Part shown: positions 1 through 31,689 of the stretch, piece after piece
Layout: every line of letters begins with the position of its first letter
How positions within the stretch are numbered: position 1 is the first letter of the stretch
NCBI RefSeq assembly: GCF_003966335.1
Contig: NZ_CP034549.1
Location: forward strand, 1,710,001-1,742,000
Reading direction: 5' to 3'
Origin: Nonlabens ponticola
GTDB taxonomy: Bacteria > Bacteroidota > Bacteroidia > Flavobacteriales > Flavobacteriaceae
Length of the DNA: 32,000 nt
Translations under genes and position numbers: made by a program
The notes under the pieces: generated by a model
The model's database searches: none
Told to the model about the DNA's origin: nothing
What the model saw: only the letters and a program-made list of their open reading frames with translations

Positions 1-449
1 GCCAAGTGAGTTTACAAATGAAGGACGTAGATCATGTTAATAAGGTAGGTAACCATTTATTTACTGATACAGGATCACCGCATCACGTGCAGCTTACCGA
101 TAATGTAGAACATACCGACGTTGTAGCCATGGGTCGAGCACTGCGTCATGATCTATATGGTGAGGCTGGTGCCAATATCAATTTTGTACAGCCGGTAACG
201 GCGGCGACCTTTAAAGTGCGCACCTATGAGCGTGGAGTAGAGGACGAGACCTTGAGTTGTGGCACTGGTGTTACAGCCGTGGCACTTGCCATGCATGCCA
301 GCCAGCAAACCACAGCGCATGAAGTCACCTTGCAAACGCCAGGTGGTGAGCTCAGGGTAGAATTTGACATAAATCCTAGTGGCGGTTATCACAACATCTG
401 GCTCACAGGAGCAGCCACTCAAGTTTTTACAGGAAGTATTGACGTATGA
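1..449 (+). CDS. dapF: diaminopimelate epimerase, C-terminal portion (5' end outside window)
   Basis: ORF is open to the left edge. The C-terminal domain has the second active-site cysteine context LSCGTGVTAVALA. Its stop overlaps the next start (ATGA at 446-449). Confidence 0.8.
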   Translation, partial: QVSLQMKDVDHVNKVGNHLFTDTGSPHHVQLTDNVEHTDVVAMGRALRHDLYGEAGANINFVQPVTAATFKVRTYERGVEDETLSCGTGVTAVALAMHASQQTTAHEVTLQTPGGELRVEFDINPSGGYHNIWLTGAATQVFTGSIDV

Positions 450-970
450 ACGTATTGACGACAGACATATGCAAACTTAGAGCCGTCGATCCAGAAGATC
501 TTGACTTTATTTATGCCCTTGAAAACAATCCTGATCTTTGGGATGTAGGTCACACGTTGACACCCTATTCAAAATATACTATACGAGAGTATCTAGAGAA
601 CGCGCATCGTGATATTTATGAAGTAAAACAATTGCGTCTCGCCATTTGCAGGCAAGATGATTCTATTATAGGAGTGGTAGATTTATATGATTTTGATCCC
701 TATCACAAGCGCGCTGGTGTAGGTATCGTGATTTCTAGCACCATCGACCGATCTAAAGGTTATGCCACGGCAGCGATGCAGCTCATGATCAATTATGCCT
801 TCAGGCACTTGAGATTACACCAGTTGTATGCTGGTGTCTCAGAGGATAATCTGGCTAGTAGAAAATTATTTGAAAAGTTACGCTTTCGCGAAAGCGGAAT
901 AAAAAAAGACTGGATTGCTACCGAAACTGGATTCAAGGACGAGATCCACTATCAATTGATCAATGAATAA
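446..970 (+). CDS. GNAT-family N-acetyltransferase (RimJ/RimL-like)
   Basis: 174-aa ORF with an acetyl-CoA motif-A-like segment GVGIVISSTIDRSKGYATAAM. Translationally coupled to dapF. Confidence 0.75.
   Translation: MNVLTTDICKLRAVDPEDLDFIYALENNPDLWDVGHTLTPYSKYTIREYLENAHRDIYEVKQLRLAICRQDDSIIGVVDLYDFDPYHKRAGVGIVISSTIDRSKGYATAAMQLMINYAFRHLRLHQLYAGVSEDNLASRKLFEKLRFRESGIKKDWIATETGFKDEIHYQLINE
881..896. repeat. palindrome copy 1: CGCTTTCGCGAAAGCG (16 bp perfect)
   Basis: Inside the GNAT CDS, read as R-F-R-E-S. Confidence 0.95.
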
Positions 971-2926: not shown

Positions 2927-3655
2927 CTATTTGCGCGCACCAAAGATGGCGCTGCCTATCCTAATCATCGTGCTTCCTTCTTCAAGGGCAATTTCATAAT
3001 CACCAGTCATTCCCATAGATAATTCATCGAACTGGTGTCTTGAATCTAGTAATTTTTGTTGCTTTACTGTGTCAAAAAGTCCTTTGAGAACTTTAAACTC
3101 TTGACGTACTTGGTCCTTATCATCGGTAAAGGTGGCCATTCCCATCAAACCTCTTACTTGAACATTTTCTAAAGATTTGAAAGCATCACTTGCTAAGTAA
3201 TCAAGCAGATCATCTTTATCAAAACCATATTTTGATTCCTCATCTGCGATATGCACTTGTAGCAATCCGTTGATGATTCTATCGTTTTTTATGGCTTCTT
3301 TATTCACTTCCTTGATGAGTCGCGGTGAATCAAGACTATGTATCAAATGCACATATGGAGCCATGTATTTCACCTTGTTACGTTGTGTATGACCTATCAT
3401 GTGCCACTTGATATCTTTAGGTAATAGGTCATGCTTTTCGGTCATTTCTTGGATCTTATTTTCACCAAAATGGCGCTGACCAGCATTATAAGCCTGCTGC
3501 AAATCTTGTATGGGTTTTGTTTTGCTCACAGCCACTAGAGTAGCTTTGGGTTGTACGCTTTCGTCCCGTGTCGTTGCACGGGACAAACTCAAGTCGTCAA
3601 TGACTTCCTTGAAGCGTAATATTGAAGAGGTTATATCACTCATTTTCAAATTCAT
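2927..3655 (-). CDS. yggS: YggS-family pyridoxal-phosphate homeostasis protein
   Basis: Motifs LVAVSKTKP (PLP lysine), HFGENKIQE, WHMIGHTQRNK, SMGMTGDYE and IRIGSAIFG. The start is ATG 3655 or 3643; both overlap the stop of the upstream gene. Confidence 0.85.
   Translation of the reverse strand: MNLKMSDITSSILRFKEVIDDLSLSRATTRDESVQPKATLVAVSKTKPIQDLQQAYNAGQRHFGENKIQEMTEKHDLLPKDIKWHMIGHTQRNKVKYMAPYVHLIHSLDSPRLIKEVNKEAIKNDRIINGLLQVHIADEESKYGFDKDDLLDYLASDAFKSLENVQVRGLMGMATFTDDKDQVRQEFKVLKGLFDTVKQQKLLDSRHQFDELSMGMTGDYEIALEEGSTMIRIGSAIFGARK
3554..3563. repeat. palindrome half-site TACGCTTTCG
   Basis: Inside yggS, directly abutting an 8-bp-stem hairpin (3563-3584). Confidence 0.5.
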
Positions 3656-5352: not shown

Positions 5353-6240
5353 CTATTGAAACGCTTTTGAAATCTTTTCTGCCTTTCTAGATTCAGAATA
5401 ATCGTAGAAACCTTCTCCAGATTTCACCCCTTTTTTACCGGCCATCACCATGTTAACGAGCAATGGACACGGCGCATACTTGGGATTTTTGAATCCATCA
5501 TACATCACATTGAGAATAGATAGACACACGTCAAGTCCTATAAAGTCTGCTAATTGTAATGGTCCCATTGGGTGTGCCATACCTAATTTCATAACCGTAT
5601 CAATTTCTGCTACACCAGCCACGCCATTATACAAGGTTTCAATAGCCTCATTAATCATTGGCATCAAGATGCGGTTTGCTACAAATCCTGGGTAGTCGTT
5701 CACCTCAGTTGGTGTTTTTCCTAGCTTTCGCGAAAGCGTCATAATGGTCTCTGTCACTTCATCGCTGGTGCTATATCCACGTATGATCTCTACCAACTTC
5801 ATGATCGGTACAGGATTCATAAAGTGCATACCAATTACCTTATCAGGTCGCTGTGTCACTGCTGCAATTTGAGTAATAGAAATGGATGAGGTATTTGTCG
5901 CTAGGATGCAATCTGCTGGCGCATGGGCATCTAACTCACCAAAAATCTTCAACTTGAGCTCCACATTTTCAGTAGCTGCTTCAACCACAAGGTCGGCTTC
6001 CTTGATGCCATCTGTAAGACTTGTAAATGTCTTGATATTGCCCAATGTACTTTCTTTATCTGCCTCGCTAATTTTTTCCCTAGCGATCATACGATCCAGA
6101 TTCTTTCCTATCGTGGCGAGACCTCTATTAATATTTGCCTGTGACACATCAACAAGTGAAACCGTGAATCCTGATTGTGCAAAAGTGTGTGCAATCCCAT
6201 TACCCATGGTGCCTGCGCCTATAACTGATATCTTTTTCAT
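5353..6240 (-). CDS. hbd: 3-hydroxybutyryl-CoA / 3-hydroxyacyl-CoA dehydrogenase
   Basis: ISVIGAGTMGNGIA Rossmann motif, plus NTSS, GMHFMNP, PGFVANR and GMAHPMGP. Confidence 0.85.
   Translation of the reverse strand: MKKISVIGAGTMGNGIAHTFAQSGFTVSLVDVSQANINRGLATIGKNLDRMIAREKISEADKESTLGNIKTFTSLTDGIKEADLVVEAATENVELKLKIFGELDAHAPADCILATNTSSISITQIAAVTQRPDKVIGMHFMNPVPIMKLVEIIRGYSTSDEVTETIMTLSRKLGKTPTEVNDYPGFVANRILMPMINEAIETLYNGVAGVAEIDTVMKLGMAHPMGPLQLADFIGLDVCLSILNVMYDGFKNPKYAPCPLLVNMVMAGKKGVKSGEGFYDYSESRKAEKISKAFQ
5724..5737. repeat. palindrome copy 2: GCTTTCGCGAAAGC (14 bp perfect)
   Basis: Inside hbd (minus strand), read as L-S-R-K. Confidence 0.95.
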
Positions 6241-6253
6241 ATAATATGTTTAG

Positions 6254-6269
6254 ATCCTGAAATCAGGAT
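6254..6269 (-). other. intercistronic hairpin (6-bp stem, 4-nt loop)
   Basis: ATCCTG-AAAT-CAGGAT lies directly after the stop of the oxidoreductase gene and 13 nt before the hbd start. There is no clear U-tract. Confidence 0.3.
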
Positions 6270-7238
6270 TTATAGTTGTTTAAAATTCTCAATGATTTGC
6301 ATGGCAACATCTAGTGCTCGTGTACCATCTTCCAGATTGACAATAGGCCTGGTATCATTTTCAATCGCATCTGCAAAGGTTTCCAATTCCATCAAAATGG
6401 CGTTGGTTGCGGCGATATCTGGATTGTCAAAATAGATTTGTTTTTTAATTCCTTCGGCATTTTGAAGGATCATGTCAAAGTCACCAGGCGTTTCTGGCGC
6501 GTCCTTCATGCGTACTACTTCAACAGCTTTGGTCAAGAAATCGACTGATATATAAGCATCACGCTGGAAGAATCGTGCTTTGCGCATTTTTTTGAGACTT
6601 ATGCGACTTGCTGTAAGATTTGCCACACAACCGTTCTCAAACTCGATGCGTGCGTTGGCAATATCAGGAGTTTCTGAAATCACACTTACGCCACTAGCAC
6701 TCACGCTTTTCACCTCGCTTTTCACGACGCTCAAGATGGCGTCTATATCATGTATCATTAGATCCAGCACCACGCTCACGTCAGTACCTCTTGGATTGAA
6801 TTCTGCCAATCTATGTGACTCGATGAACATAGGATTATCGATGCGGTCGTGTACAGATCTAAAGGCGTCGTTAAAGCGCTCGACGTGTCCTACCTGGCCT
6901 TTGACATTATGCTTTCGCGAAAGCGTAATCAATTCCTGCGCCTGTGCAACAGTAACGGTAATAGGTTTTTCAATAAATAAGTGTTTACCAGCTTCTAGGA
7001 CTTTCTTGCCGCTATCATGATGGTAGGTGGTAGGCGTCACGACGTCTATCATGTCACAAGCCTCAATGAGCTCGTCAAGATTATCATAGAATTTGTAACC
7101 TAATTCTTGCTCCAACTGCTTGCCGTGCACGGAATCGGTATCATAAAATCCAATTAGATCATATCGATCGCTTTGCTGTAAGAGTTTGAGGTGGATCTTG
7201 CCTAAATGGCCAGCTCCCATGACACCTGCTTTTAACAT
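6270..7238 (-). CDS. Gfo/Idh/MocA-family NAD(P)-dependent oxidoreductase
   Basis: N-terminal GVMGAGHLGKIH Rossmann segment and the family EKP motif (LFIEKPIT). Confidence 0.8.
   Translation of the reverse strand: MLKAGVMGAGHLGKIHLKLLQQSDRYDLIGFYDTDSVHGKQLEQELGYKFYDNLDELIEACDMIDVVTPTTYHHDSGKKVLEAGKHLFIEKPITVTVAQAQELITLSRKHNVKGQVGHVERFNDAFRSVHDRIDNPMFIESHRLAEFNPRGTDVSVVLDLMIHDIDAILSVVKSEVKSVSASGVSVISETPDIANARIEFENGCVANLTASRISLKKMRKARFFQRDAYISVDFLTKAVEVVRMKDAPETPGDFDMILQNAEGIKKQIYFDNPDIAATNAILMELETFADAIENDTRPIVNLEDGTRALDVAMQIIENFKQL
6911..6924. repeat. palindrome copy 3: GCTTTCGCGAAAGC (14 bp perfect)
   Basis: Inside the Gfo/Idh/MocA CDS (minus strand), read as L-S-R-K. Confidence 0.95.
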
Positions 7239-8032: not shown

Positions 8033-8092
8033 TTGATAAATTTACTGCTGCATCAGGAAAATAAAAATGCCTATGATGTTTTCGATGATATC

Positions 8093-9004
8093 CTAATTGA
8101 AAGACTGCCTGTATTCCAAAGGTGTCATCTCTGTCTTTCTCTTGAAAAGTTTGCCAAATGATTGTGGATGCTCAAAACCCAGCGCATAGGATATTTCACT
8201 TACAGACAGAGGCGTGTTGGCGAGCTGTAATTTGGCTCTTGAAATGATCGTCTCATGAATATGCTCTTGGGTACTTTTATTAGTTAGGGTCTTAAGTAAT
8301 CGGCTCAAATAATTAGGAGATAAGTTGAGATCGTCAGCTATTTGTTTTACCGTTGGAATACCTGGGTTCAATAGTTTATTTTCAAAACTTTCGCGCAGTA
8401 AAATCTCAAATTTTTCCAGAACATCATGATGGACCTTACGCCTCGTGTGGAATTGACGCTCATAAAAACGTGCGCTGTATGTGAGCAGCAAATCAATCTG
8501 GGAAATAATTACATTGTGGCTATGAGAATCTATATTATTTTGCAGTTCTAGCTCTATTTGATTTAAGAGGTCATTAATGAGTTGTTGTTCCCTATCTGAT
8601 AAATGCAATGCCTCGTTAAGATGGTATTCAAAAAAGTCATACGACTTCATCTTGCTAGCTAGACCAGTCTTGTAGATAAAATCAGGATGCATGAGTAACA
8701 TTTTTCCTTTATGTTTGAGCTGTGACCCATCATTGACCTCTACACTCATGTTCTGGTGTGGTGCTAGAAATGCTAGCACGCCGTCTTTAAAATCATATTC
8801 CTGCAGGCCATATTTCATGGCGCCGTTTATCAAATCCTTGAGCGCTACACAGTAAAAACCAAAAGTCATTTTTCCCGTGGATTTATACTCTTGTTGCATG
8901 TCATTAAAGTCAACGATACTCAATAATGGGTGTAGTGGACTTTTCAAACCTTTCAGTTTGTGATAGGCAGTAATGCTGGATATGTGCAGGATTTCTGTTG
9001 TCAT
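8093..9004 (-). CDS. AraC-family transcriptional regulator
   Basis: C-terminal double HTH: IADDLNLSPNYLSRLLK and ISYALGFEHPQSFGKLFKR. Confidence 0.85.
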   Translation of the reverse strand: MTTEILHISSITAYHKLKGLKSPLHPLLSIVDFNDMQQEYKSTGKMTFGFYCVALKDLINGAMKYGLQEYDFKDGVLAFLAPHQNMSVEVNDGSQLKHKGKMLLMHPDFIYKTGLASKMKSYDFFEYHLNEALHLSDREQQLINDLLNQIELELQNNIDSHSHNVIISQIDLLLTYSARFYERQFHTRRKVHHDVLEKFEILLRESFENKLLNPGIPTVKQIADDLNLSPNYLSRLLKTLTNKSTQEHIHETIISRAKLQLANTPLSVSEISYALGFEHPQSFGKLFKRKTEMTPLEYRQSFN

Positions 9005-9006
9005 GA

Positions 9007-9885
9007 TTATTTGTTATAGGCCATCGCAAAATCTTTGGCAAAATCTGCAAGGCCCACCTTTCCTAATTGCTTTGGTTTATGGTTATCATAATCTTGGTTA
9101 AGCCTGCCGTTTTCAAGACTTTGGTACATCTCAGTATAAAGTTGTGCGATGGACTCAGGTATCCCATTATCAATCATACCTTTTTTGACAGCTGCATCGT
9201 CAATAATTTCCCATTTTAAATCTGGTTTACCTATTGCCGCTCCTAGCGTTGCAGCAATCTCCTTACCTGTATGATGCGAGCTGGCGATGTACTTGAAAAT
9301 ACTGCTCTGTTCTTTTACAAGCTCTTGTGATGCTACGGTCGCGATGTCCCTAGGTGAGACTAATGGGAATGACTTACTTCCATAGTTTGCCATGATTTTA
9401 CCTGTGTACTTGATCATATCAATATTGTGCATCAAATTGTAGTAGAAGTAGGTAGGCCTCAATATGGTCAATTCGATATTGGGTATCGCGCTTATTATTT
9501 GCTCTGTAAAGTAGGACCCTAATATAGGTCCAGTGCCGTAGCTCAAGTGAGCCCCAAAACTACTTAATAATACCACTCTCTTTACCGCAGTTAGTTCAAT
9601 GGCTTTGGCATATACTGCCGCCGTCTTGCGATAATATTCTCGTATATCTGGCTGCTGGTAGTCTGGTGGACACATTAGGAATACTGATTCCGCTTTCGCG
9701 AAAGCGGAAACTAAAAAATCCACATCCTGCAATGATCCAATCATAGGCGTCGCGCCCAGATCCTCAATTTGTGAGGCTCTAGCTGGTGAATGGCTAATGA
9801 TAGTCAGGTCGTGACCTTGTTCCTGCAATTGTTGCGCAAGCGGTTGACCAATGTTTCCCAAAGAGCTTGCAAGTGTGATATTCAT
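9007..9885 (-). CDS. NmrA-like / atypical SDR NAD(P)-binding protein
   Basis: 292 aa with a degenerate N-terminal dinucleotide-binding segment (ASSLGNIGQPLAQQL). A 2-nt gap to the AraC gene suggests an operon. Confidence 0.65.
   Translation of the reverse strand: MNITLASSLGNIGQPLAQQLQEQGHDLTIISHSPARASQIEDLGATPMIGSLQDVDFLVSAFAKAESVFLMCPPDYQQPDIREYYRKTAAVYAKAIELTAVKRVVLLSSFGAHLSYGTGPILGSYFTEQIISAIPNIELTILRPTYFYYNLMHNIDMIKYTGKIMANYGSKSFPLVSPRDIATVASQELVKEQSSIFKYIASSHHTGKEIAATLGAAIGKPDLKWEIIDDAAVKKGMIDNGIPESIAQLYTEMYQSLENGRLNQDYDNHKPKQLGKVGLADFAKDFAMAYNK
9688..9709. repeat. palindrome copy 4: TTCCGCTTTCGCGAAAGCGGAA (22 bp perfect)
   Basis: Inside the NmrA-like CDS (minus strand), read as S-A-F-A-K-A-E. 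Confidence 0.95.
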
Positions 9886-10338
9886 AATATGATTTTAAGA
9901 TACAAATATCAATCGCACTGTTAGAAGGAATGTATCTAGATCTATCTAACTGTAAGCCAAATAGTGCTTTCCATCTATTCTATATGTAATGCTCCTTGCG
10001 ACCTATCCTTACTTTGGGCGCGGTCGAGATCCTTTGCTCTACAAATGCGAGTTCCTTTATATAAATGGTATTATGCGTGCCGTATTTCTCGACTCGCTGC
10101 CGCTTTCTGGTCTTTGGGTTGTAAGAGTAAGGAAGGAAATCATGATCCTATAGGCGTTGGAATATTTTATCTTTATCATATCCGTTTAGAAAGGATTATT
10201 TAAGCTACCGTACTTGGTATGAATCTAGAAAATTTAACCAGCGAGCGCAAAGATAATATGAGTAATTGCACCAACTTGTTTTTAAGTCGATCGGGAGCAA
10301 GTATGGGTGATGATTTAGATTAAATGTATAGGGATCAC

Positions 10339-10352
10339 GCTTCTGCGAAAGC
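10339..10352. repeat. palindrome copy 5, degenerate (GCTTCTGCGAAAGC, 12/14)
   Basis: Intergenic, 10 nt beyond the stop of the 827-aa gene. Confidence 0.6.
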
Positions 10353-10361
10353 AAAATCATC

Positions 10362-13374: not shown

Positions 13375-13426
13375 ACAATCGCAAATATAATTTAATGAGT
13401 TGCAGGCATCGTTATATATTTGTGAA

Positions 13427-14188
13427 ATGCAAAAAGCCCTTTTATCACTCCTATTATTAGTATTTATAACGATTGCCAGCTGTAATCAGGATCACATCAA
13501 TCCTGCGACCATTGTCGAGGAAACAATGATGGCACACGGCACTGATGTCATGGATAATGCTACTGTTGATTTTAATTTTAGAGGTATCGACTATAGCGTG
13601 AGTCGTAGTAATGGTTATTTTGAGTACTCGCGCAGTTTTAATCAAGCAGGTAACAAGGTCGTGGATCGATTGACCAACGATGGTTTTACCAGGAGCATCA
13701 ACGATAGCATTGTGCAATTGCCAGATTCTTTATCCAGCCGATATCGATCTAGCCTTAACAGCGTTGTATATTTCGCTCAGTTACCATACGGTCTGGACAA
13801 TCCAGCAGTAAATCTTGAATATCTAGGAACTGACAGCATCAAGCAAAACAAGTATCACGAGATCAAGGTTACTTTTGATGAGACTGGTGGTGGCGAGGAT
13901 CACGAGGATGAATTCTTGTACTGGATCAACGTGCAGGATTCCCTAATAGATTATTTAGCATATTCCTATTGCGAGGAAGATTGTGGATTACGCTTTCGCG
14001 AAAGCATAAACCGCAAAAACATAAAAGGAATCGTAATACAGGATTACAACAATTATAATCCAGAACAAGAGGCTGCAGAACTCGAGGATCTTGATCGTCT
14101 TTTTGAAAAAGACCAGCTCAATTTACTGAGCACCATACGTACAGAATTTCCAGAAGTAAGCCTCAATGACGAGGTCGCAGATCTATGA
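13427..14188 (+). CDS. hypothetical lipoprotein
   Basis: ATG at 13427 gives the lipoprotein signal MQKALLSLLLLVFITIASC. The track start at 13400 is TTG. Confidence 0.55.
   Translation: MQKALLSLLLLVFITIASCNQDHINPATIVEETMMAHGTDVMDNATVDFNFRGIDYSVSRSNGYFEYSRSFNQAGNKVVDRLTNDGFTRSINDSIVQLPDSLSSRYRSSLNSVVYFAQLPYGLDNPAVNLEYLGTDSIKQNKYHEIKVTFDETGGGEDHEDEFLYWINVQDSLIDYLAYSYCEEDCGLRFRESINRKNIKGIVIQDYNNYNPEQEAAELEDLDRLFEKDQLNLLSTIRTEFPEVSLNDEVADL
13992..14005. repeat. palindrome copy 6: GCTTTCGCGAAAGC (14 bp perfect)
   Basis: Inside the lipoprotein CDS (plus strand), read as R-F-R-E-S. Confidence 0.95.
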
Positions 14189-15638: not shown

Positions 15639-15935
15639 ATGACAACTACTACAGAGACTTATCAAGAAAAATATGCTAGGGCCAAAGCTCGCGTGAACGA
15701 GATCAGGTATTTTTATAACCATGTAGCCGTCTATTTACTTATCAATGCTGCACTTGCAGGGCTTAATTATTGGGAGAATCAATTTGCATTTCCATGGTTC
15801 CTATTCCCTTTATTAGGTTGGGGTATAGGTTTATTGAGCCATGCGGTAGGAACCTTTAGGCTCAATCCTTTTGTAAGTAAAGAATGGGAAGAGCGCAAAC
15901 TGCGTGAGATCATGGAACAACAAGATAAATCCTAA
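15639..15935 (+). CDS. 2TM domain-containing small membrane protein
   Basis: 98 aa with a two-helix hairpin (VAVYLLINAALAGLNYW / WFLFPLLGWGIGLLSHAV) paralogous to the kinase C-terminus. A 2-nt gap separates it from the kinase stop. Confidence 0.7.
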   Translation: MTTTTETYQEKYARAKARVNEIRYFYNHVAVYLLINAALAGLNYWENQFAFPWFLFPLLGWGIGLLSHAVGTFRLNPFVSKEWEERKLREIMEQQDKS

Positions 15936-15936
15936 G

Positions 15937-16716
15937 ATGTCAATCAATGTCCTTATTATAGAAGATGAAAAGCCAGCGGCAAGACGATTGCAGCGCATGG
16001 CAGAAAAGCTAGATCTTACCGTCGCTGCGGTATTACACAGCGTGGCAGAATCTATTGCCCATCTATCATCACAGCCGCATCCAGATCTCATATTTCTGGA
16101 TATACAATTAAGTGATGGGCTGTCCTTTGAAATTTTTGAACAGGTAAGCGTCAAGAGTTCTATAATCTTTACCACAGCCTATGATGAATATGCCTTACAA
16201 GCCTTCAAACTCAACAGCATTGATTATTTACTCAAACCTATAGATCAAGATGAGCTCGTGACAGCGGTAGATAAATTTAAGTCACGCTTTCGCGAAAGCG
16301 GAACAAACCCAAACACCTTACCTGCATCCATCATGCAGCAGATGGCACAAATGCTTTCTAACCCTGCAGGACAACAGTATCGTGATAGATTTACAGCTAG
16401 AGTAGGTGAGCATATCAAGATCTTTGCGGTCGATGAAGTGCAATTATTCTTCTCAGAGAATAAAGGCACCTATCTTAATGTTGCAAATGGTCGCAATTAC
16501 CTGTTGGACTATAAAATGGAAGAAATGGAACAATTGCTGGATCCCAATAAATTCCACCGTATTTCTAGGCAGGCAATAGTTCATGTCAACGCTATCAATG
16601 ACATCATAGCTTATACCAACTCACGTTTAAAAGTCAAAATAGACTCATTTAAGACTTATGATTTGATTGTAAGTAGAGAGCGTGTAAAGGACTTTAAGAA
16701 ATGGCTCGAGCGATAA
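15937..16716 (+). CDS. LytTR-family DNA-binding response regulator
   Basis: ATG at 15937 is 1 nt after the upstream stop. Receiver domain (VLIIEDE, DLIFLDIQLSD) and C-terminal LytTR domain (FHRISRQAIVHVNAI). Confidence 0.85.
   Translation: MSINVLIIEDEKPAARRLQRMAEKLDLTVAAVLHSVAESIAHLSSQPHPDLIFLDIQLSDGLSFEIFEQVSVKSSIIFTTAYDEYALQAFKLNSIDYLLKPIDQDELVTAVDKFKSRFRESGTNPNTLPASIMQQMAQMLSNPAGQQYRDRFTARVGEHIKIFAVDEVQLFFSENKGTYLNVANGRNYLLDYKMEEMEQLLDPNKFHRISRQAIVHVNAINDIIAYTNSRLKVKIDSFKTYDLIVSRERVKDFKKWLER
16285..16300. repeat. palindrome copy 7: CGCTTTCGCGAAAGCG (16 bp perfect)
   Basis: Inside the LytTR regulator CDS, in the receiver/LytTR linker, read as R-F-R-E-S. Confidence 0.95.
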
Positions 16717-16825
16717 TTGCCTAATTATTTGATTATCAATATGAAGAATTAATTGGGCTTTAACGTTTCCTTGTAAACCACAACATGTTTGCTCGCGTAT
16801 GTTTACTGTAAACAAAAACATACAC

Positions 16826-17518
16826 ATGAAAAAAATTGCCCTATGGTCAAGCATTGCAATCTGCGCTATCGCAGGTCTGTTCATTGCCGCTGATCACCTT
16901 GATGCACCAGATGTTGCAGGAACAACATCAGACATCGCAGACTTTTATGCCTTTGAAGGACAAAACTCTGATGCTACAACATTTGTAGTAACTATTCCGG
17001 CCTCAGACGAGAATTCTCAATTTGATGAGAACGTTCTTATCGAGATCAACATTGATAATACCGGTCTAGATTCTGGTACTACTGGTGTCACTGAAGATTT
17101 AGTAATCCAGGCATTGCGCCAGGGCGACCAGATGTATTTCTTTGGACCATATGCTCCAGGATCAACAGGACTTAACAGTACTATTGATACTGATGAATTT
17201 TCTGCTTCTGTAGAAATAGGAAGTACTGAAACTACTGGTGGTGTTAGCTATTTTGCAGGACAACGTCAAGACGCGTTCTTCTTTGATTTTGAAGAGTTTA
17301 ATAATGTAATTGGTAATGCACCAGCTGAAGGTTTTGGCGATGATGGTGATAACCTTTTTGAAGACTTCAATGTCAATGCAATTGTTATCGAGATTCCTAA
17401 CTCCATGTTAGGTACTGCACCAACACACCTTGCTGATCAACTTGCTGCTGCAGTAGGTTTACCAGCATTCAATTTACCTAATGCATACAATGTATGGGTA
17501 GAAACTAAGCGTCGATAA
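16826..17518 (+). CDS. DUF4331 family protein, N-terminal-half type, secreted
   Basis: ATG at 16826 gives the signal peptide MKKIALWSSIAICAIAG. Motifs ADHLDAPDVAG..SDIADFYAF, LIEINIDNTG and NVNAIVIEIP match the front half of DUF4331 proteins as I recall them. Confidence 0.65.
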   Translation: MKKIALWSSIAICAIAGLFIAADHLDAPDVAGTTSDIADFYAFEGQNSDATTFVVTIPASDENSQFDENVLIEINIDNTGLDSGTTGVTEDLVIQALRQGDQMYFFGPYAPGSTGLNSTIDTDEFSASVEIGSTETTGGVSYFAGQRQDAFFFDFEEFNNVIGNAPAEGFGDDGDNLFEDFNVNAIVIEIPNSMLGTAPTHLADQLAAAVGLPAFNLPNAYNVWVETKRR

Positions 17519-17542: not shown

Positions 17543-18169
17543 ATGAAATTATTTAATATTAAATATGCTGTTGCTGCATTAGCACTAGCAACTATCACAA
17601 TAAGTTGTGATGATGACGATGATGTAACAGGCTTTCCAGCTACAACTGATTTCTCCGGTACTTTTGTACAAGAAGATCAAATGGGTCGTCCTGGTATCAA
17701 CACCGTTTTCACTCCAACTGAGGATGATGAGAATGAATTTAATGTAACCTTGCCAGCAAATGGTATCGCTAACTTTCAAGCTATCTTTCAAGATAGACTA
17801 GAAGCATACTACGACGCTTATGGTGCGGAATATGAAAACAACATTCTAGGTCTTGACATTGCAACATTGACGACTGTACTTGCACTTGATGTGTTACAAG
17901 TTGCTCCTAATGCAGATACTAGTTATTTTAATCCTAACACGGGCGTACCACTTACTGGTAGAAGGCTAACTGACGACGTTATTGACGTTTCTTTGATCCT
18001 CCTTTTTGGTGGTGAGAGCGGTGCACGTTTTGACGGTGGTGAAGGTAATGGTGATGACGACGATGATGATGATTCTAACAACGTACCTAACCTTGTTTCA
18101 GACAATGTAGGTGTTGAAGATGATGCTGTTCAAAACACATTCCCATACTTGACGCCAGCTGACTTCTAG
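17543..18169 (+). CDS. DUF4331 family lipoprotein, C-terminal-half type, with poly-Asp tracts
   Basis: Lipoprotein signal ...ATITISC. Motifs QMGRPGINTVF, TGRRLTDDVIDVSL and FPYLTP match the back half of DUF4331. D5 follows the lipobox Cys and D7 lies near the C-terminus. Confidence 0.65.
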   Translation: MKLFNIKYAVAALALATITISCDDDDDVTGFPATTDFSGTFVQEDQMGRPGINTVFTPTEDDENEFNVTLPANGIANFQAIFQDRLEAYYDAYGAEYENNILGLDIATLTTVLALDVLQVAPNADTSYFNPNTGVPLTGRRLTDDVIDVSLILLFGGESGARFDGGEGNGDDDDDDDSNNVPNLVSDNVGVEDDAVQNTFPYLTPADF

Positions 18170-18242: not shown

Positions 18243-19538
18243 ATGAAAAACCTAATTATCATTTTGATTTTAATGTTGTTCATCACTAGCTGTGGTGACC
18301 GCAATGTTGATGTAGCATCCAGTACCATTACAGCTGCCGAGGATTATCAAGAATACCTGGAGAATGACAATACTAGTGAGATAGAAGCATTTAAGCAAGA
18401 GGTTGATTTTCTACGTGAAGTAGTTACAGAGGATAGTACCAGAATTGTAGTAATGAGCCAACTTGCAGGCAAACTAGATCGATTATTTGATCTTACTGGT
18501 GAAGTTGATTATTTGAATGAGTCAGTTAGCTTTCGCGAAAACGTAACCCAGAAAACATACATCAAACCAGAGAATGCAAAGCGTAATCTGGCACAAGCAT
18601 ACATAAAGCAACATCGCTTCAAAAAAGCCGATAGCCTGATGAAATCATTTACGGCAAATTATGCCAGTAAGGAAAGTCAGTTTGTCCAATTTGACATCGC
18701 CATGGAGTTGGGAGAATATCAAACGGCGCAGTTGCTGCTGGATTCCCTGCGCAATACAGGTGATTATAATTATTTAATTCGTGCTGCCAAATGGAATGAT
18801 CACGACGGTAATCTGGAAAATACGATTAACCTCATGGAGCAGGCAAAGCAACTAGCTGATGAGAGTGGTAGTCAATCACGACAGTTGTGGAGTTATTCAA
18901 ACATAGCAGATTATTATGGTCACAATGGCCAGTTAGAGGACTCTTATGAGCATTATTTAAAAACGCTAGAATTAGATCCAGGTAACACCTATGCCTTGAA
19001 AGGTATATCGTGGCTGGTTTATTCAAATGATCGCGATCCAGATCAAGCATTAGAAATATTGACAACGCTTAAAGAAAGGCATCCATTACCCGATTACAAC
19101 CTAGAAATGGCTGAGGTTTATGAATACAAAGATGCCTCGCAAACTGCTGATTCTTTACGCGCTGTATTTCTTTCTCAAGTGAGTGATCCGGGTTATGGAG
19201 ACATGTATAATGCCTATAAAATTGAGGAATTAATTGCAGCTGGTGAATCACAGCAAGCCGTTGATCTAGCACGTCTTGAAATTACCAATCGCGCTACTCC
19301 TGAGACTTATGATTTGTTGGGCTATGCTTTATTATCTAATGATGAGGCTGCTGCAGCTCTTGAAAATCATAAGAAATATGTCATCGGTAAAACATATGAA
19401 CCGGTAGCGCAATTGCACACGGCTCAGATTTTGAAAGCAAATAACATGAACGAGATGGTAGAGAAACTCAAAAAGGAGCTTCTAGAGACTGAATATGAAT
19501 TAGGGCCAGTAACCTATAAACAAATACAGGCATTGTAA
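18243..19538 (+). CDS. TPR-repeat lipoprotein
   Basis: Lipoprotein signal MKNLIIILILMLFITSC. All-helical sequence with TPR-like repeats (e.g. YYGHNGQLEDSYEHYLKTLELDPGN). Confidence 0.7.
   Translation: MKNLIIILILMLFITSCGDRNVDVASSTITAAEDYQEYLENDNTSEIEAFKQEVDFLREVVTEDSTRIVVMSQLAGKLDRLFDLTGEVDYLNESVSFRENVTQKTYIKPENAKRNLAQAYIKQHRFKKADSLMKSFTANYASKESQFVQFDIAMELGEYQTAQLLLDSLRNTGDYNYLIRAAKWNDHDGNLENTINLMEQAKQLADESGSQSRQLWSYSNIADYYGHNGQLEDSYEHYLKTLELDPGNTYALKGISWLVYSNDRDPDQALEILTTLKERHPLPDYNLEMAEVYEYKDASQTADSLRAVFLSQVSDPGYGDMYNAYKIEELIAAGESQQAVDLARLEITNRATPETYDLLGYALLSNDEAAAALENHKKYVIGKTYEPVAQLHTAQILKANNMNEMVEKLKKELLETEYELGPVTYKQIQAL
18529..18542. repeat. palindrome copy 8 (GCTTTCGCGAAAAC, 13/14)
   Basis: Inside the TPR CDS, read as S-F-R-E-N. 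Confidence 0.8.
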
Positions 19539-23043: not shown

Positions 23044-23535
23044 TCAAGGATATAATTTCTCAAATTTCATAGGGTTGTTATTTCCTATCTTGAGATTTTC
23101 CATGGCATTAAGTGCGATGTCAACACGTTTTTGTGAATCCTTGACACCGTACACCATGAATATGATGTTACGCTGTTTGCCTGGCAATAGTTTTTCAAAG
23201 AGTTCGTAGGCTTCATGATCGCTCAATAAAACGGCTTCCAGCTCTTCGGTCATGGGAGCTTGATATTTGCTAGTATCTTCATGCATGCTTACATGAACCT
23301 CGTCGCCTTGATCTATATTGAGGAGTTTCTTGTTAGCCTTAGAACACATCAAGTAAAACATTCCTTTCTTCTTTATGACACCAGCATAAAGAGTAATTTC
23401 GTTTTTACCAGAAGTAACAGTGGCAACGACTCTTTTAATTTTGGATACAGTTAGTTGGTCTGCTATATCTTCAGGTATTGGCAAGGCGCCCATCCAGCCA
23501 TCGGTACTCAACTGCGTTTCAAATTCAAAAATCAT
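23044..23535 (-). CDS. DUF1905 / YdeI-like two-domain protein
   Basis: 163 aa. The N-terminal beta-barrel-like part (GALPIPEDIADQL...ATV) and C-terminal helical part (LLPGKQRNIIFMVYGVKDSQKRVDIA) resemble DUF1905 plus YdeI/OmpD-associated domains. ATGA overlap with the upstream gene. Confidence 0.6.
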   Translation of the reverse strand: MIFEFETQLSTDGWMGALPIPEDIADQLTVSKIKRVVATVTSGKNEITLYAGVIKKKGMFYLMCSKANKKLLNIDQGDEVHVSMHEDTSKYQAPMTEELEAVLLSDHEAYELFEKLLPGKQRNIIFMVYGVKDSQKRVDIALNAMENLKIGNNNPMKFEKLYP

Positions 23536-24746
23536 TCTACTACATTAGTTATAATCTGCGTTTGGGAATGCATGGTACGATGTACGGGACACTTATCGGC
23601 AATTTGTAGTAATTTCTCTAACTGTTTTTCATCTAAGTCGCCCGTGAATTTAATTTCTCTCGTAAACGTATCAATTTTTGATTTCTCGTCTTCGCAGTTT
23701 GCACAGTCGGCGGCGTGTTGTTTGTCATAATTCACGTGACATTCAATATTGTCTAGTGGCCATTCCTTGCGCCGCGCGTACATCTGTACGGTCATTACTG
23801 TACAGGACGCTAGTGCGCTAGACATGAGTTCATAAGGCGTTGGGCCAAAATCATTTCCCTGCACACTTTCTGGTTCATCAGCTATAAAATAATGTCTTCC
23901 AGCTTTCATCTGTGTGGTAAACATACTTTCTTGATCAAGACTGGCGACTACGTGATGATTAGTATCGATAGAATCTTCCTCTGGTATTTCTACATATCTG
24001 GAAGCCCATCCAGCAATGACCTCACCTACATACTTAGAATCATTTTTGTTGGTCAACAAATGATCTGCTCCATCCAAACTCACAAAACTCTTAGGATGGA
24101 TTGCCGCATGATACAGCTTTTCTGCATGATTAATACTTACCGTATCATCCTGTGGTGAATGGCAAATGAGTAAAGGCTTGCGCAATTCTTTCAGCGTTTT
24201 GATGACCATTTGCTCATTGATATCACGCAAGAATTGCTTTTTAATCCTAAACGGTCTACCGCTCAACTGTACTACGGCTTCACCATTTGCTTCAATAGCT
24301 TTAATTTGATCGCCAAAAAGATGCTTCACATGATCAGTATCACTAGGAGCTCCGATTGTTGCAAGGGCTTTAATGGATTTCGCTTTCGCGGAAGCATAAA
24401 CCACAGCAGCACCGCCCAAAGAATGACCTATCAGTAGGCTAGGAGCTTTGTAGTGCTGTGCCAGATGGTCGATCGCTGCAAGCAGATCGTCAACGTTTCC
24501 AGAGAAATTGGTATCACCAAAATCGCCCTCGGAATCGCCCAAGCCTGTAAAATCAAATCGCAATACACCATAACCAGCCGTCGTTAGGGCACGTGAGATA
24601 TTGCGTGTAGCACTAAAGTTTTTACTGCAGGTAAAACAATGAGCAAACACCGCATAATTATGTGGATGCCTATCTGCCGGTAATTCGAGCCTGCCACTCA
24701 ATTGATAGCCTGCTTGATTAGTAAACTCTATTTTTTCAAAATTCAT
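23532..24746 (-). CDS. bifunctional alpha/beta-hydrolase - OsmC-family fusion protein
   Basis: N-terminal hydrolase with the nucleophile elbow GHSLGG. The C-terminal OsmC-like domain has two Cys contexts (ALASCTVMT, ADKCPVHRT). Confidence 0.8.
   Translation of the reverse strand: MNFEKIEFTNQAGYQLSGRLELPADRHPHNYAVFAHCFTCSKNFSATRNISRALTTAGYGVLRFDFTGLGDSEGDFGDTNFSGNVDDLLAAIDHLAQHYKAPSLLIGHSLGGAAVVYASAKAKSIKALATIGAPSDTDHVKHLFGDQIKAIEANGEAVVQLSGRPFRIKKQFLRDINEQMVIKTLKELRKPLLICHSPQDDTVSINHAEKLYHAAIHPKSFVSLDGADHLLTNKNDSKYVGEVIAGWASRYVEIPEEDSIDTNHHVVASLDQESMFTTQMKAGRHYFIADEPESVQGNDFGPTPYELMSSALASCTVMTVQMYARRKEWPLDNIECHVNYDKQHAADCANCEDEKSKIDTFTREIKFTGDLDEKQLEKLLQIADKCPVHRTMHSQTQIITNVVE
24382..24395. 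repeat. palindrome copy 9 (GCTTTCGCGGAAGC, 13/14)
   Basis: Inside the hydrolase-OsmC CDS (minus strand), read as A-S-A-K-A. Confidence 0.8.
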
Positions 24747-27932: not shown

Positions 27933-27946
27933 GCTTTCGCGAAACC
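27933..27946. repeat. palindrome copy 10 (GCTTTCGCGAAACC, 13/14)
   Basis: Intergenic, between the amine oxidase stop and the BNR-protein start. The left flank is TTAC, as in other copies. Confidence 0.8.
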
Positions 27947-30718: not shown

Positions 30719-31228
30719 ATGAACCAACCAACTTTCATAGCGACATTTCAAGACGTACAAAAAAGAATGTACCAATTGTCAAGAAGATTGCTCACCTCGC
30801 ACGAGGAAGCAGCAGATGCCGTGCAGGAAACCATGCTCAAGCTATGGGAAAAGCGCGAGAAGTTGAAAGATGTAAATAATAAGGAAGCCTATGCCATGCA
30901 AATGGTGAAGAACTTCTCTCTAGATCGATTGAAGAGTAAGCAGGCTGGACATCTTAAAATTGTCCATAATAATTATGACTCAGGCGATCGCAACGCACAG
31001 GAAGAAATGGAGCGAGCTACCACGGTAAGCACCGTACAGCAGCTCATCGCAGATCTTCCAGAGAATTATAGAATGGTCATACAACTGCGTGACATACAGC
31101 AATATGACTATGAGGCGATAGAGAAAATAATGAATATGAAGGCAACGGCAGTGCGTGTTAGTTTAAGCCGGGCACGCAAGTTGCTTAAAGAACGAATAGA
31201 ACAGTATCACAACACAGAAACAGCATGA
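30719..31228 (+). CDS. ECF-type RNA polymerase sigma-70 factor
   Basis: Region 2 (EAADAVQETMLKLWEK) and region 4 (YRMVIQLRDIQQYDYEAIEKIMNMKATAVRVSLSRARKLL). Confidence 0.85.
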   Translation: MNQPTFIATFQDVQKRMYQLSRRLLTSHEEAADAVQETMLKLWEKREKLKDVNNKEAYAMQMVKNFSLDRLKSKQAGHLKIVHNNYDSGDRNAQEEMERATTVSTVQQLIADLPENYRMVIQLRDIQQYDYEAIEKIMNMKATAVRVSLSRARKLLKERIEQYHNTETA

Positions 31229-31689
31229 ATGATTTGTTAGAAAAATACTGGAATGGTGCTACCAGCCTGCAAGAAGAGCAGCAACTGCGCGATTATTTTG
31301 CAGGAGACTCTGTGGCGAGAAGCCACGAGGTGTACCGCAGCTTGTTCAACAGTTTTGAGCTGGAGAGTAGGTTAGAGGATGGTGATTATGACGCTTTCGC
31401 GAAAGTGAAATCAAAACAATCACAAGACCACATTTTTAACCGCAGAACATGGAAAGGAATCGCCATAGCAGCAAGCATGGCCGTGGCAGTAGCGGTAGGA
31501 ACTGGATATTTTGAGACCCAGCAGCAACAAGATTTAGGCACCTATGAAACGCCTGAAGAAGCGTATGAAGCAACCGTGGCAGCGCTAGAAATGGTAAGTG
31601 CCAGAATCAATAAGGGTAAAAGCACCTTGCAGCCCATGAAAGAAATTAATCAACAAGCAGCGCCAGTCATACAGCTGGCTCAAAAATAA
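31225..31689 (+). CDS. putative anti-sigma / membrane protein of the ECF-DUF4252 module
   Basis: ATGA overlap with the sigma stop. Single TM helix (GIAIAASMAVAVAVGTGYF). No zinc-finger motif. Confidence 0.5.
   Translation: MNDLLEKYWNGATSLQEEQQLRDYFAGDSVARSHEVYRSLFNSFELESRLEDGDYDAFAKVKSKQSQDHIFNRRTWKGIAIAASMAVAVAVGTGYFETQQQQDLGTYETPEEAYEATVAALEMVSARINKGKSTLQPMKEINQQAAPVIQLAQK
31393..31406. repeat. palindrome copy 11 (GCTTTCGCGAAAGT, 13/14; perfect 12-bp core)
   Basis: Inside the anti-sigma-like CDS, read as A-F-A-K-V. Confidence 0.8.

Follow-up and report, generated by a model that had tools for sequence, protein, structure and literature searches.

A long iterated palindrome of Nonlabens and Dokdonia, HIP-like in behaviour and tentatively read as a self-DNA signal

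Analysis of a 32,000-nucleotide stretch of the genome of Nonlabens ponticola (contig NZ_CP034549.1, positions 1,710,001 to 1,742,000, hereafter the window; 40% GC) reveals that its most repeated word, by a wide margin, is the palindromic 14-mer GCTTTCGCGAAAGC, present in 11 copies of which six are exact, four carry one mismatch and one carries two. This motif is an undescribed counterpart of HIP1 (Highly Iterated Palindrome 1) of cyanobacteria and of the DNA uptake sequences, and it belongs to neither family by sequence; full-text literature searches retrieved no earlier description of it, nor of any iterated palindrome in Flavobacteria or Bacteroidetes. It is specific to a set of lineages comprising Nonlabens, Dokdonia and many marine metagenome contigs.

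Compared with dinucleotide-preserving shuffles of the window, the word CTTTCGCGAAAG occurs seven times against 0.01 expected and the 10-base core TTTCGCGAAA nine times against 0.02, which rules out chance or base composition as the cause of the excess. The motif core can be written (C)GCTTTCGCGAAAGC(G) and lies mostly within the consensus TTAC-GCTTTCGCGAAAGC-GTAA; together with its flanks the 14-mer forms a weaker 22-bp palindrome, TTACGCTTTCG followed by CGAAAGCGTAA. The copies in the window are the following.

882-895: exact copy in the GNAT acetyltransferase gene 446-970 (+ strand), read (L)RFRES; an orthologous copy is present in Nonlabens sp. L001.
5724-5737: exact copy in the hbd gene 5353-6240 (- strand), read TLSRK (amino acid 168); specific to the lineage of the window.
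6911-6924: exact copy in the Gfo/Idh/MocA oxidoreductase gene 6270-7238 (- strand), read TLSRK (amino acid 105).
9692-9705: exact copy within the perfect 22-bp palindrome TTCCGCTTTCGCGAAAGCGGAA, in the NmrA-like gene 9007-9885 (- strand), read AFAKA.
10339-10352: intergenic and degenerate copy, GCTTCTGCGAAAGC, which has two mismatches and lies 3' of the DUF5686 gene; the orthologous position 2202 of Nonlabens sp. L001 carries an exact copy.
13992-14005: exact copy in the DUF6503 gene 13400-14188 (+ strand), read LRFRES, on a family-conserved RFRE peptide.
16286-16299: exact copy in the LytTR response-regulator gene 15904-16716 (+ strand), read (L)RFRES, in the linker after the receiver domain.
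18529-18542: one-mismatch copy GCTTTCGCGAAAAC in the TPR protein gene 18243-19538 (+ strand), read SFREN.
24382-24395: one-mismatch copy GCTTTCGCGGAAGC in the hydrolase-OsmC fusion gene 23532-24746 (- strand), read ASAKA.
27933-27946: one-mismatch copy GCTTTCGCGAAACC in the intergenic spacer that separates the sortilin/BNR and amine-oxidase genes.
31393-31406: one-mismatch copy GCTTTCGCGAAAGT in the gene 31225-31689 (+ strand) of a 154-residue protein, read DAFAKV.

Nine of the 11 copies are thus located in genes, where they occupy all three codon phases (RFRES, AFAKA and LSRK), and eight of the nine host open reading frames (ORFs) are supported by Pfam, the exception being 31225-31689. A preliminary description of this DNA, drawn from its letters and ORFs, had claimed that the palindrome is translated in three frames, that no peptide is common to its copies and that all six of its frames are free of stop codons; all of this holds for the 14-mer, a single word giving three unrelated peptides. 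The sites it named are real and most of its coordinates stand, those given as 881, 16285 and 9688 being displaced by one to four bases according to the first base counted; its list took in four one-mismatch variants and omitted the two intergenic copies (10339 and 27933).

The same description proposed that the palindrome replaces residues rather than inserting them, and we scored indels at the sites in orthologue sets consisting of 80 Flavobacteriia hbd loci, four syntenic Nonlabens loci and protein homologues. Seven host genes were compared (hbd, Gfo/Idh/MocA, NmrA-like, OsmC-fusion, DUF6503, GNAT and the 154-residue protein, that is, all except LytTR and TPR). None has a gap at the motif site or an insertion of 12-24 nt, five of the seven having solid motif-free outgroups, and an inserted mobile unit is thereby ruled out. 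For hbd, all 80 tblastn alignments are ungapped at the site, so that the segment TLSRKLGKTP has, as had been supposed, no extra length: the usual M-E-L-S-K-K-L-G-K (e.g. GAGCTTTCTAAAAAACTT) has become M-T-L-S-R-K-L-G-K (ACGCTTTCGCGAAAGCTA) in the window. None of the 80 orthologue loci has the motif at this site, and because even those of Nonlabens and Dokdonia lack it, the hbd copy is a recent gain through approximately three to five substitutions. The A/C-rich segment LGKTPTEV downstream of the copy is conserved across all Flavobacteriia and exemplifies a flank that nearly suited the motif beforehand.

The other genes behave similarly. No gap is seen in the Gfo/Idh/MocA orthologues listed out of 74 matches; Nonlabens sp. 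L001 has a one-mismatch copy at this site and the other orthologues have no motif. The NmrA-like site reads AFSGA or AFSKA in 21 homologues versus AFAKA in the window, and the OsmC-fusion site reads ASAKA in all Nonlabens versus AAAEI or AATEI in Aquimarina, Flagellimonas and others, both free of gaps. The GNAT comparison is weak evidence, the sole motif-free homologue (L054) being only 24% identical, with a local alignment that is free of gaps. TPR orthologues come from four Nonlabens genomes only, all with the motif at the site. For DUF6503, 15 motif-free species encode RFRE or RFRK by other codons, again with no gap, and in the family of the 154-residue protein DAFAK or DPFAK is widespread at a gap-free site. 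Peptides are therefore conserved in the absence of the palindrome at DUF6503 and probably at DAFAK, a pattern that the preliminary description had regarded as contrary to its claim; the claim survives, since this conservation shows that copies settle, mostly by synonymous changes, where the peptide and even the flanks nearly fit beforehand, and the DUF6503 palindrome in particular arose mainly through synonymous changes. The codons that the motif imposes are rare in the window (TCG accounts for 4% of Ser and GCG for 13% of Ala).

Gains and losses between genomes likewise consist of substitutions throughout, with unchanged length. An apparent 25-nt hairpin "insertion" in the window opposite position 12146 of L001 proved to be a blastn artefact, MAFFT aligning there a diverged copy of the same length (LRFKEV vs. 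LRFRES). This relic, GCTTCAAGGAAGTC, is found in the window at 3590-3640, at the start of the YggS-like gene (2927-3655, - strand), and the corresponding site in L001 and in Dokdonia sp. L025 has an exact copy (LRFRES); the copy in the window was either lost by substitution or never completed.

Once formed, the copies are held by a constraint at the DNA level that is much stronger than that acting on the neighbouring sequence. Between five Nonlabens genomes, of about 70% DNA identity, 54 of 74 ordered copy comparisons are identical versus 1.8 expected, and in Dokdonia three of four copies are identical versus a background of 2.3%; these pairwise comparisons are not independent, and the effect is very large. 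At about 70% identity only 1.3-4.8% of 14-mers are fully conserved, so that, as for HIP sites, conservation between genomes clearly exceeds background. Synonymous positions within the motif are identical across the five genomes and intergenic copies are kept too, which together with the three peptides and the rare codons sustains the earlier view that constraint acts on the DNA and not on the protein. All five Nonlabens species retain the one-mismatch variants of sites 24382 and 31393 as such. The TPR copy (18529) is exact in N. agnitus, N. marinus and N. sp. Hel1_33_55 and carries one mismatch in N. antarcticus, and the intergenic copy at 27933 has exact counterparts at the corresponding gene junction in three of the four other Nonlabens genomes. 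Some copies are common to members of one genus and occasionally to different genera (L001:12146 and L025:12163), others being lineage-specific. In each of the eight loci analysed, copies are spaced more evenly than chance would place them (coefficient of variation 0.17-0.55, about 0.5, versus 0.8-0.92; pooled P = 0.0002).

Flank identity around copies shared between species is not raised above background except at the GNAT site, and recombination tracts around shared copies are accordingly not supported. At the GNAT site a 45-nt block is identical between the window (868-912) and L001 (approximately 16690-16740), genomes that are about 70% identical overall and whose GNAT products are 79% identical; the other shared copies have no such block.

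Three of the 80 Flavobacteriia hbd loci carry the motif, those of Nonlabens sp. L001 (four copies), Dokdonia pacifica L020 (six) and Dokdonia sp. L025 (five exact), and the 14-mer is absent from the other 77, which amount to about 1.4 Mb and represent many genera. Further carriers are N. antarcticus, N. agnitus, N. marinus and N. sp. Hel1_33_55. The density, taken from eight loci (seven named genomes plus the window, loci and not whole genomes), is 52 copies with at most one mismatch in 179 kb, that is 0.29 per kb or about one per 3.4 kb, and extrapolates to roughly 800 copies in the 2.87-Mb genome of the window. A metagenome scan with the 16-mer gave at least 120 matching loci; among the matches listed, most low-GC loci have several copies, on contigs of up to 1.4 Mb, whereas high-GC loci have one copy each and correspond to chance matches. 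Because several copies occur on many separate metagenome contigs, the motif is genome-wide and not a local cluster. On these loci and contigs it is thus, like HIP sequences, a short perfect palindrome in orders-of-magnitude excess throughout a lineage. One contig of the hbd set, L026 (CALPIE020000186.1), is labelled 'MAG: Bifidobacterium breve' and carries a flavobacterial hbd 80% identical to that of the window; the label is most likely due to bin contamination.

In the lytic Nonlabens phage P12024S (35.7 kb) no copy is found at up to two mismatches, versus about ten expected at host density, a comparison to be read with the caveat that its host strain may not itself be motif-rich, and GenBank phages yielded only chance matches to the extended motif. 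Among IMG/VR contigs, those that encode a terminase, portal, sheath, tape-measure or integrase protein have the motif at host-like density, some copies lying inside terminase and portal genes, and prophage-like contigs (with an integrase or a full virion gene set) have several copies each. One example is the myovirus-like IMGVR_UViG_3300040781_000495 (L100, L117, L120; 37 kb, 42-48% GC), with terminase, portal, tail sheath and baseplate genes and at least seven copies, some of them in the terminase and portal genes.

The anatomy of the element was analyzed on a pool of 249 distinct copies, taken from genomes, metagenomes and contigs of viruses. Long open spans contain 158 of them (74 in the AFAKA, 46 in the RFRES and 38 in the LSRK phase), 65 are noncoding-like, with short open spans, and 26 are ambiguous. 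Depending on the counting rule, the noncoding share is 18-26%, compared with about 11% noncoding DNA, which corresponds to a roughly two-fold intergenic enrichment. Convergent, tandem and divergent spacers contain intergenic copies in proportion to their length, none of the three being preferred, and this rules out a role as terminator or promoter. No match to the motif, and thus no known RNA family, was found in Rfam. The hairpin of the 14-mer is weak (-2.1 kcal/mol) and position-by-position pairing of the flanks does not exceed the expectation from composition, excluding an extended hairpin. The motif therefore occurs, as HIP sequences do, in all frames and between ORFs with no peptide or RNA role. 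Of the 474 occurrences of the half-site GCTTTCG, 384 are within full palindromes and the remainder equal the median of words of the same composition; since GCTTTCG alone is not enriched, a half-site or Chi-like unit is not supported. The unit is the whole duplex palindrome, neither half-site nor hairpin. In its core sits TCGCGA, a word that is unremarkable outside the motif (8 copies in 32 kb), and 32 of 43 one-mismatch variants are transitions, many of them at CpG positions.

The preliminary description made the element too short: beyond the 14-mer and its TTAC/GTAA consensus lie skewed flanks, each of about 19 nt, so that the whole spans about 50 bp. The skew is symmetric, the 5' side being C-poor and the 3' side, in mirror image, G-poor. 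Since loci found with the 16-mer in metagenomes and viruses inflate C and G at the first flank position of the sequence logo, the flank statistics were redone on the eight loci found independently of the motif, where the C content of the 5' flank is 7.8% versus 18.9% (P about 4e-38). The 5' flanks are rich in T and G, with T peaking at every third base (d = 4, 7, 10 and 13). The skew persists in 236 non-redundant clusters; noncoding copies show it, and so do copies of every coding phase and each of the three codon positions. All four base shifts of the flanks go in the direction expected if deamination of single-stranded DNA (C to U, A to I) acted on the strand ending 3' at the dyad; the equal effect at codon positions 1 and 2, however, favours a requirement over pure mutation. 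The TAA stop that the GTAA flank contains in the AFAKA phase, where copies carry GGAA or GAA flanks instead, accounts for the two flank dialects, TTAC...GTAA and TTCC...GGAA.

Among the known systems nearest to the motif are HIP1 (GCGATCGC) and its alternate forms in cyanobacteria. Like them the motif is a perfect GC-rich palindrome in huge, lineage-specific excess, found between genes and, in every frame, inside them, produced by substitution, kept from genome to genome well above background and quasi-regularly spaced, HIP1 sites themselves being conserved and quasi-periodic (PMC5861425). It differs in occurring in Bacteroidota and not in cyanobacteria, in its unrelated sequence (GCGATCGC vs. 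GCTTTCGCGAAAGC), in its length (14-16 bp, or 22 bp with the weak flanks, vs. 8 bp) and in a density about 10-fold below that of HIP1-rich cyanobacteria. The skewed flanks of about 19 nt with their 3-nt period are another difference, such flanks being unmentioned in PMC5861425 and PMC4390886, with no search aimed at flanks. The motif is neither GCGATCGC nor a close variant, which in HIP1 proper goes with cognate orphan methyltransferases for CGATCG/GATC; it is HIP-like in behaviour and not HIP1 itself. The function of HIP1 is debated between methylation and repair, nucleoid structure and transformation (PMC4390886, PMC5861425, bioRxiv 10.1101/2024.09.10.611283).

The second group of relatives comprises the uptake signal sequences (USS) of Pasteurellaceae and the DNA uptake sequences (DUS) of Neisseriaceae. 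These also number hundreds per genome, lie in several frames of ORFs at tolerant places (35-65% of USS are in ORFs; PMC2817400), are enriched between genes, form lineage dialects, have an extended consensus beyond the core and accumulate by point mutation after the arrival of a gene in the genome (PMC2817400, PMC3458573). The present motif shares with them its density, its placement in several coding frames and in noncoding DNA, and its accumulation by point mutation. USS and DUS are, however, asymmetric 9-12-mers, in contrast to the perfect palindrome described here, and one gene that seems to be accessory contains a perfect copy of the motif.

With these likenesses in mind we tentatively favour, as one possibility among several, a self-DNA signal for uptake and/or recombination that spreads by molecular drive. 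The element would be the putative site of a dimeric sequence-specific protein, and fragments bearing it would be taken up or recombined preferentially, so that mutations creating or improving copies would spread and damaging ones would be lost. The copies themselves arise by point substitution, synonymous where possible and otherwise replacing a residue. The G/T-rich 5' flanks with T at every third base suggest, in addition, that a protein, perhaps one that forms filaments, acts on the strand ending 3' at the dyad in single-stranded form. A more specific version, which we consider rather doubtful, is a palindromic self-signal of marine Flavobacteriia in which a dimer would bind the duplex and the strands ending 3' at the dyad would then become single-stranded, a protein contacting three nucleotides at a time; these contacts could produce the symmetric, G/T-rich, C-depleted flanks and their 3-nt period. 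As precedents, HIP1 enhances transformation (bioRxiv 10.1101/2024.09.10.611283; 10.64898/2026.06.24.733823), and Riemerella columbina, also of the Flavobacteriaceae, is naturally competent with a preference for its own DNA (PMC7965970).

Several points weigh against a self-DNA signal. No experiment or gene ties the motif to uptake or recombination, and no competence gene (ComEC, ComEA, DprA, pilus or pseudopilus) is encoded among the proteins of the window. To our knowledge, competence has not been described for Nonlabens or Dokdonia, nor do we know of classical uptake sequences that are palindromic. No recombination tract is visible, the flanks of shared copies being generally no more similar than background. 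The perfect copy in the accessory NmrA-like gene has to be set beside the rarity of USS in recently acquired genes (PMC2817400). Finally, strong conservation and even spacing, statistics that rest on partly orthologous and hence non-independent loci, fit a structural role in the chromosome equally well.

That structural role is the strongest alternative, though in our judgement an unlikely one: the copies would be sites of a chromosome-organising protein (nucleoid-associated, condensin-loading or of the occlusion type), and selection would keep about one site per 3 kb for the sake of nucleoid structure. The sites of known proteins of this type, namely parS for ParB, the NBS sites of Noc, matS for MatP and the SBS sites of SlmA, are also palindromes of 12-16 bp, often in genes and read by dimeric proteins. 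A perfect palindrome of 14-16 bp without enriched half-sites is typical of a dimeric helix-turn-helix site, the copies are strongly conserved, more evenly spaced than random and unclustered on many contigs, and the symmetric composition of the flanks could reflect wrapping or bending of the DNA. HIP1 provides a precedent, for which Xu et al. proposed a function in nucleoid structure (PMC5861425). On the other hand, known sites of this kind number 1-70 per genome, typically tens, and are often regional, compared with about 800 here, and some 800 sites of at least 28 bits, paid for in residues and rare codons, exceed the need of any known nucleoid protein. The 3-nt period and the G/T strand skew are unlike duplex bending (about 10.5 bp), and the two-fold intergenic enrichment fits a drive limited by protein constraint. 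TTTC and GAAA occur in the half-sites of parS (TGTTTCACGTGAAACA) and NBS (ATTTCCCGGGAAAT), as they do in the present motif. Their arrangement differs, TTTC-N2-GAAA here as opposed to the TTTC-N4-GAAA of 16-bp parS and Noc sites, which are few and usually near the origin; this geometry, together with copies on many unrelated contigs at about one per 3.4 kb, rules out identity with parS or NBS.

It is improbable that the motif is a neutral by-product of a methyltransferase acting on CGCG or TCGCGA, combined with biased short-patch mismatch repair that would turn near-matches into the palindrome (Elhai's ratchet, a model that exists for HIP1; PMC4390886). The CpG-rich core containing TCGCGA, the origin of copies through single substitutions and the predominance of transitions, many at CpG, among one-mismatch variants are what such a process would produce. 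A specificity of 14-16 bases plus 19-nt flanks is nevertheless far beyond the site of a methyltransferase or of Vsr, and the unremarkable frequency of TCGCGA elsewhere, the even spacing and the lack of copies in a lytic phage that replicates in a Nonlabens host speak against it as well.

Still less credible is a Chi-like hotspot read on single-stranded DNA by an enzyme of the AddAB/RecBCD type, the palindrome then being two hotspots placed back to back for bidirectional action. The density of about one per 3.4 kb resembles that of Chi in E. coli, and the motif shares with Chi its location in genes, in all frames, its origin by substitution, its scarcity in lytic phage and its G/T-rich surroundings, the 5' flanks having the look of RecA-preferred sequence. 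Known Chi sites are, however, words of 5-8 nt, asymmetric, strand-biased and enriched by themselves, whereas only the full palindrome is enriched here; isolated half-sites are at background, and a single-strand reader needs no partner half. A miniature mobile element inserted in frame, such as a repetitive extragenic palindrome (REP, with the related mosaic BIME), a miniature inverted-repeat transposable element or a Rickettsia palindromic element, or else a peptide or RNA motif (terminator or regulatory hairpin), has next to nothing in its favour beyond being palindromic and repeated, the Rickettsia elements also sitting in frame in genes and some intergenic copies of our motif directly following terminator-like hairpins, since those elements are insertions that add their own length relative to an empty site and REPs are intergenic, as opposed to the unchanged length at all seven gene sites compared, gains and losses by substitution, three unrelated peptides from three phases, a sequence that is itself kept with a weak hairpin, no covariation and no Rfam family, and intergenic copies spread over spacer types in proportion to length.

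Three further segments deserve mention. Between the PCMT and DUF5686 genes the window (8033-10361) contains an AraC regulator gene and the NmrA-like gene, whose product has its nearest homologue, 65% identical, in Leeuwenhoekiella, whereas L001 (2202-8003) has about 5.8 kb of other DNA in this place. Motif copies lie at or near both borders (9692 and 10339 in the window, 2202 and 8003 in L001), a single case which hints that copies may mark recombination end-points. In Nonlabens marinus (L244, 3338-4615) an integrase gene and an RND efflux pump adjoin ychF where other Nonlabens have different genes, probably the border of a genomic island. DUF4331 is split into two adjacent ORFs (16799-17518 and 17543-18169) in the window and in all four Nonlabens genomes alike, indicating a normal gene structure and not a pseudogene.

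Relative to the known kinds of iterated sequence, the motif is unusual in its length and in its skewed flanks with a 3-nt period. The pressure on the DNA overrides coding, as illustrated by the changes K to R and E to T in hbd, by four residues of the OsmC fusion and by the fixation of rare codons. The length of the motif makes chance copies negligible, and sites shared and lost among sequenced species open the way to comparative testing. In practical terms, it provides a sharp taxonomic marker for binning DNA of Nonlabens- and Dokdonia-like bacteria and of their temperate phages in marine metagenomes and, if it acts in uptake, could aid the genetic transformation of both genera. The purpose of HIP1 has been debated for three decades in essentially one phylum, and a second, unrelated case is now at hand in culturable marine Flavobacteria. 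If the tentative reading as a self-DNA signal is true, the motif would be the first genomic signal of the uptake or recombination type in Bacteroidota and an independent system in which to study the function of HIP-like palindromes.

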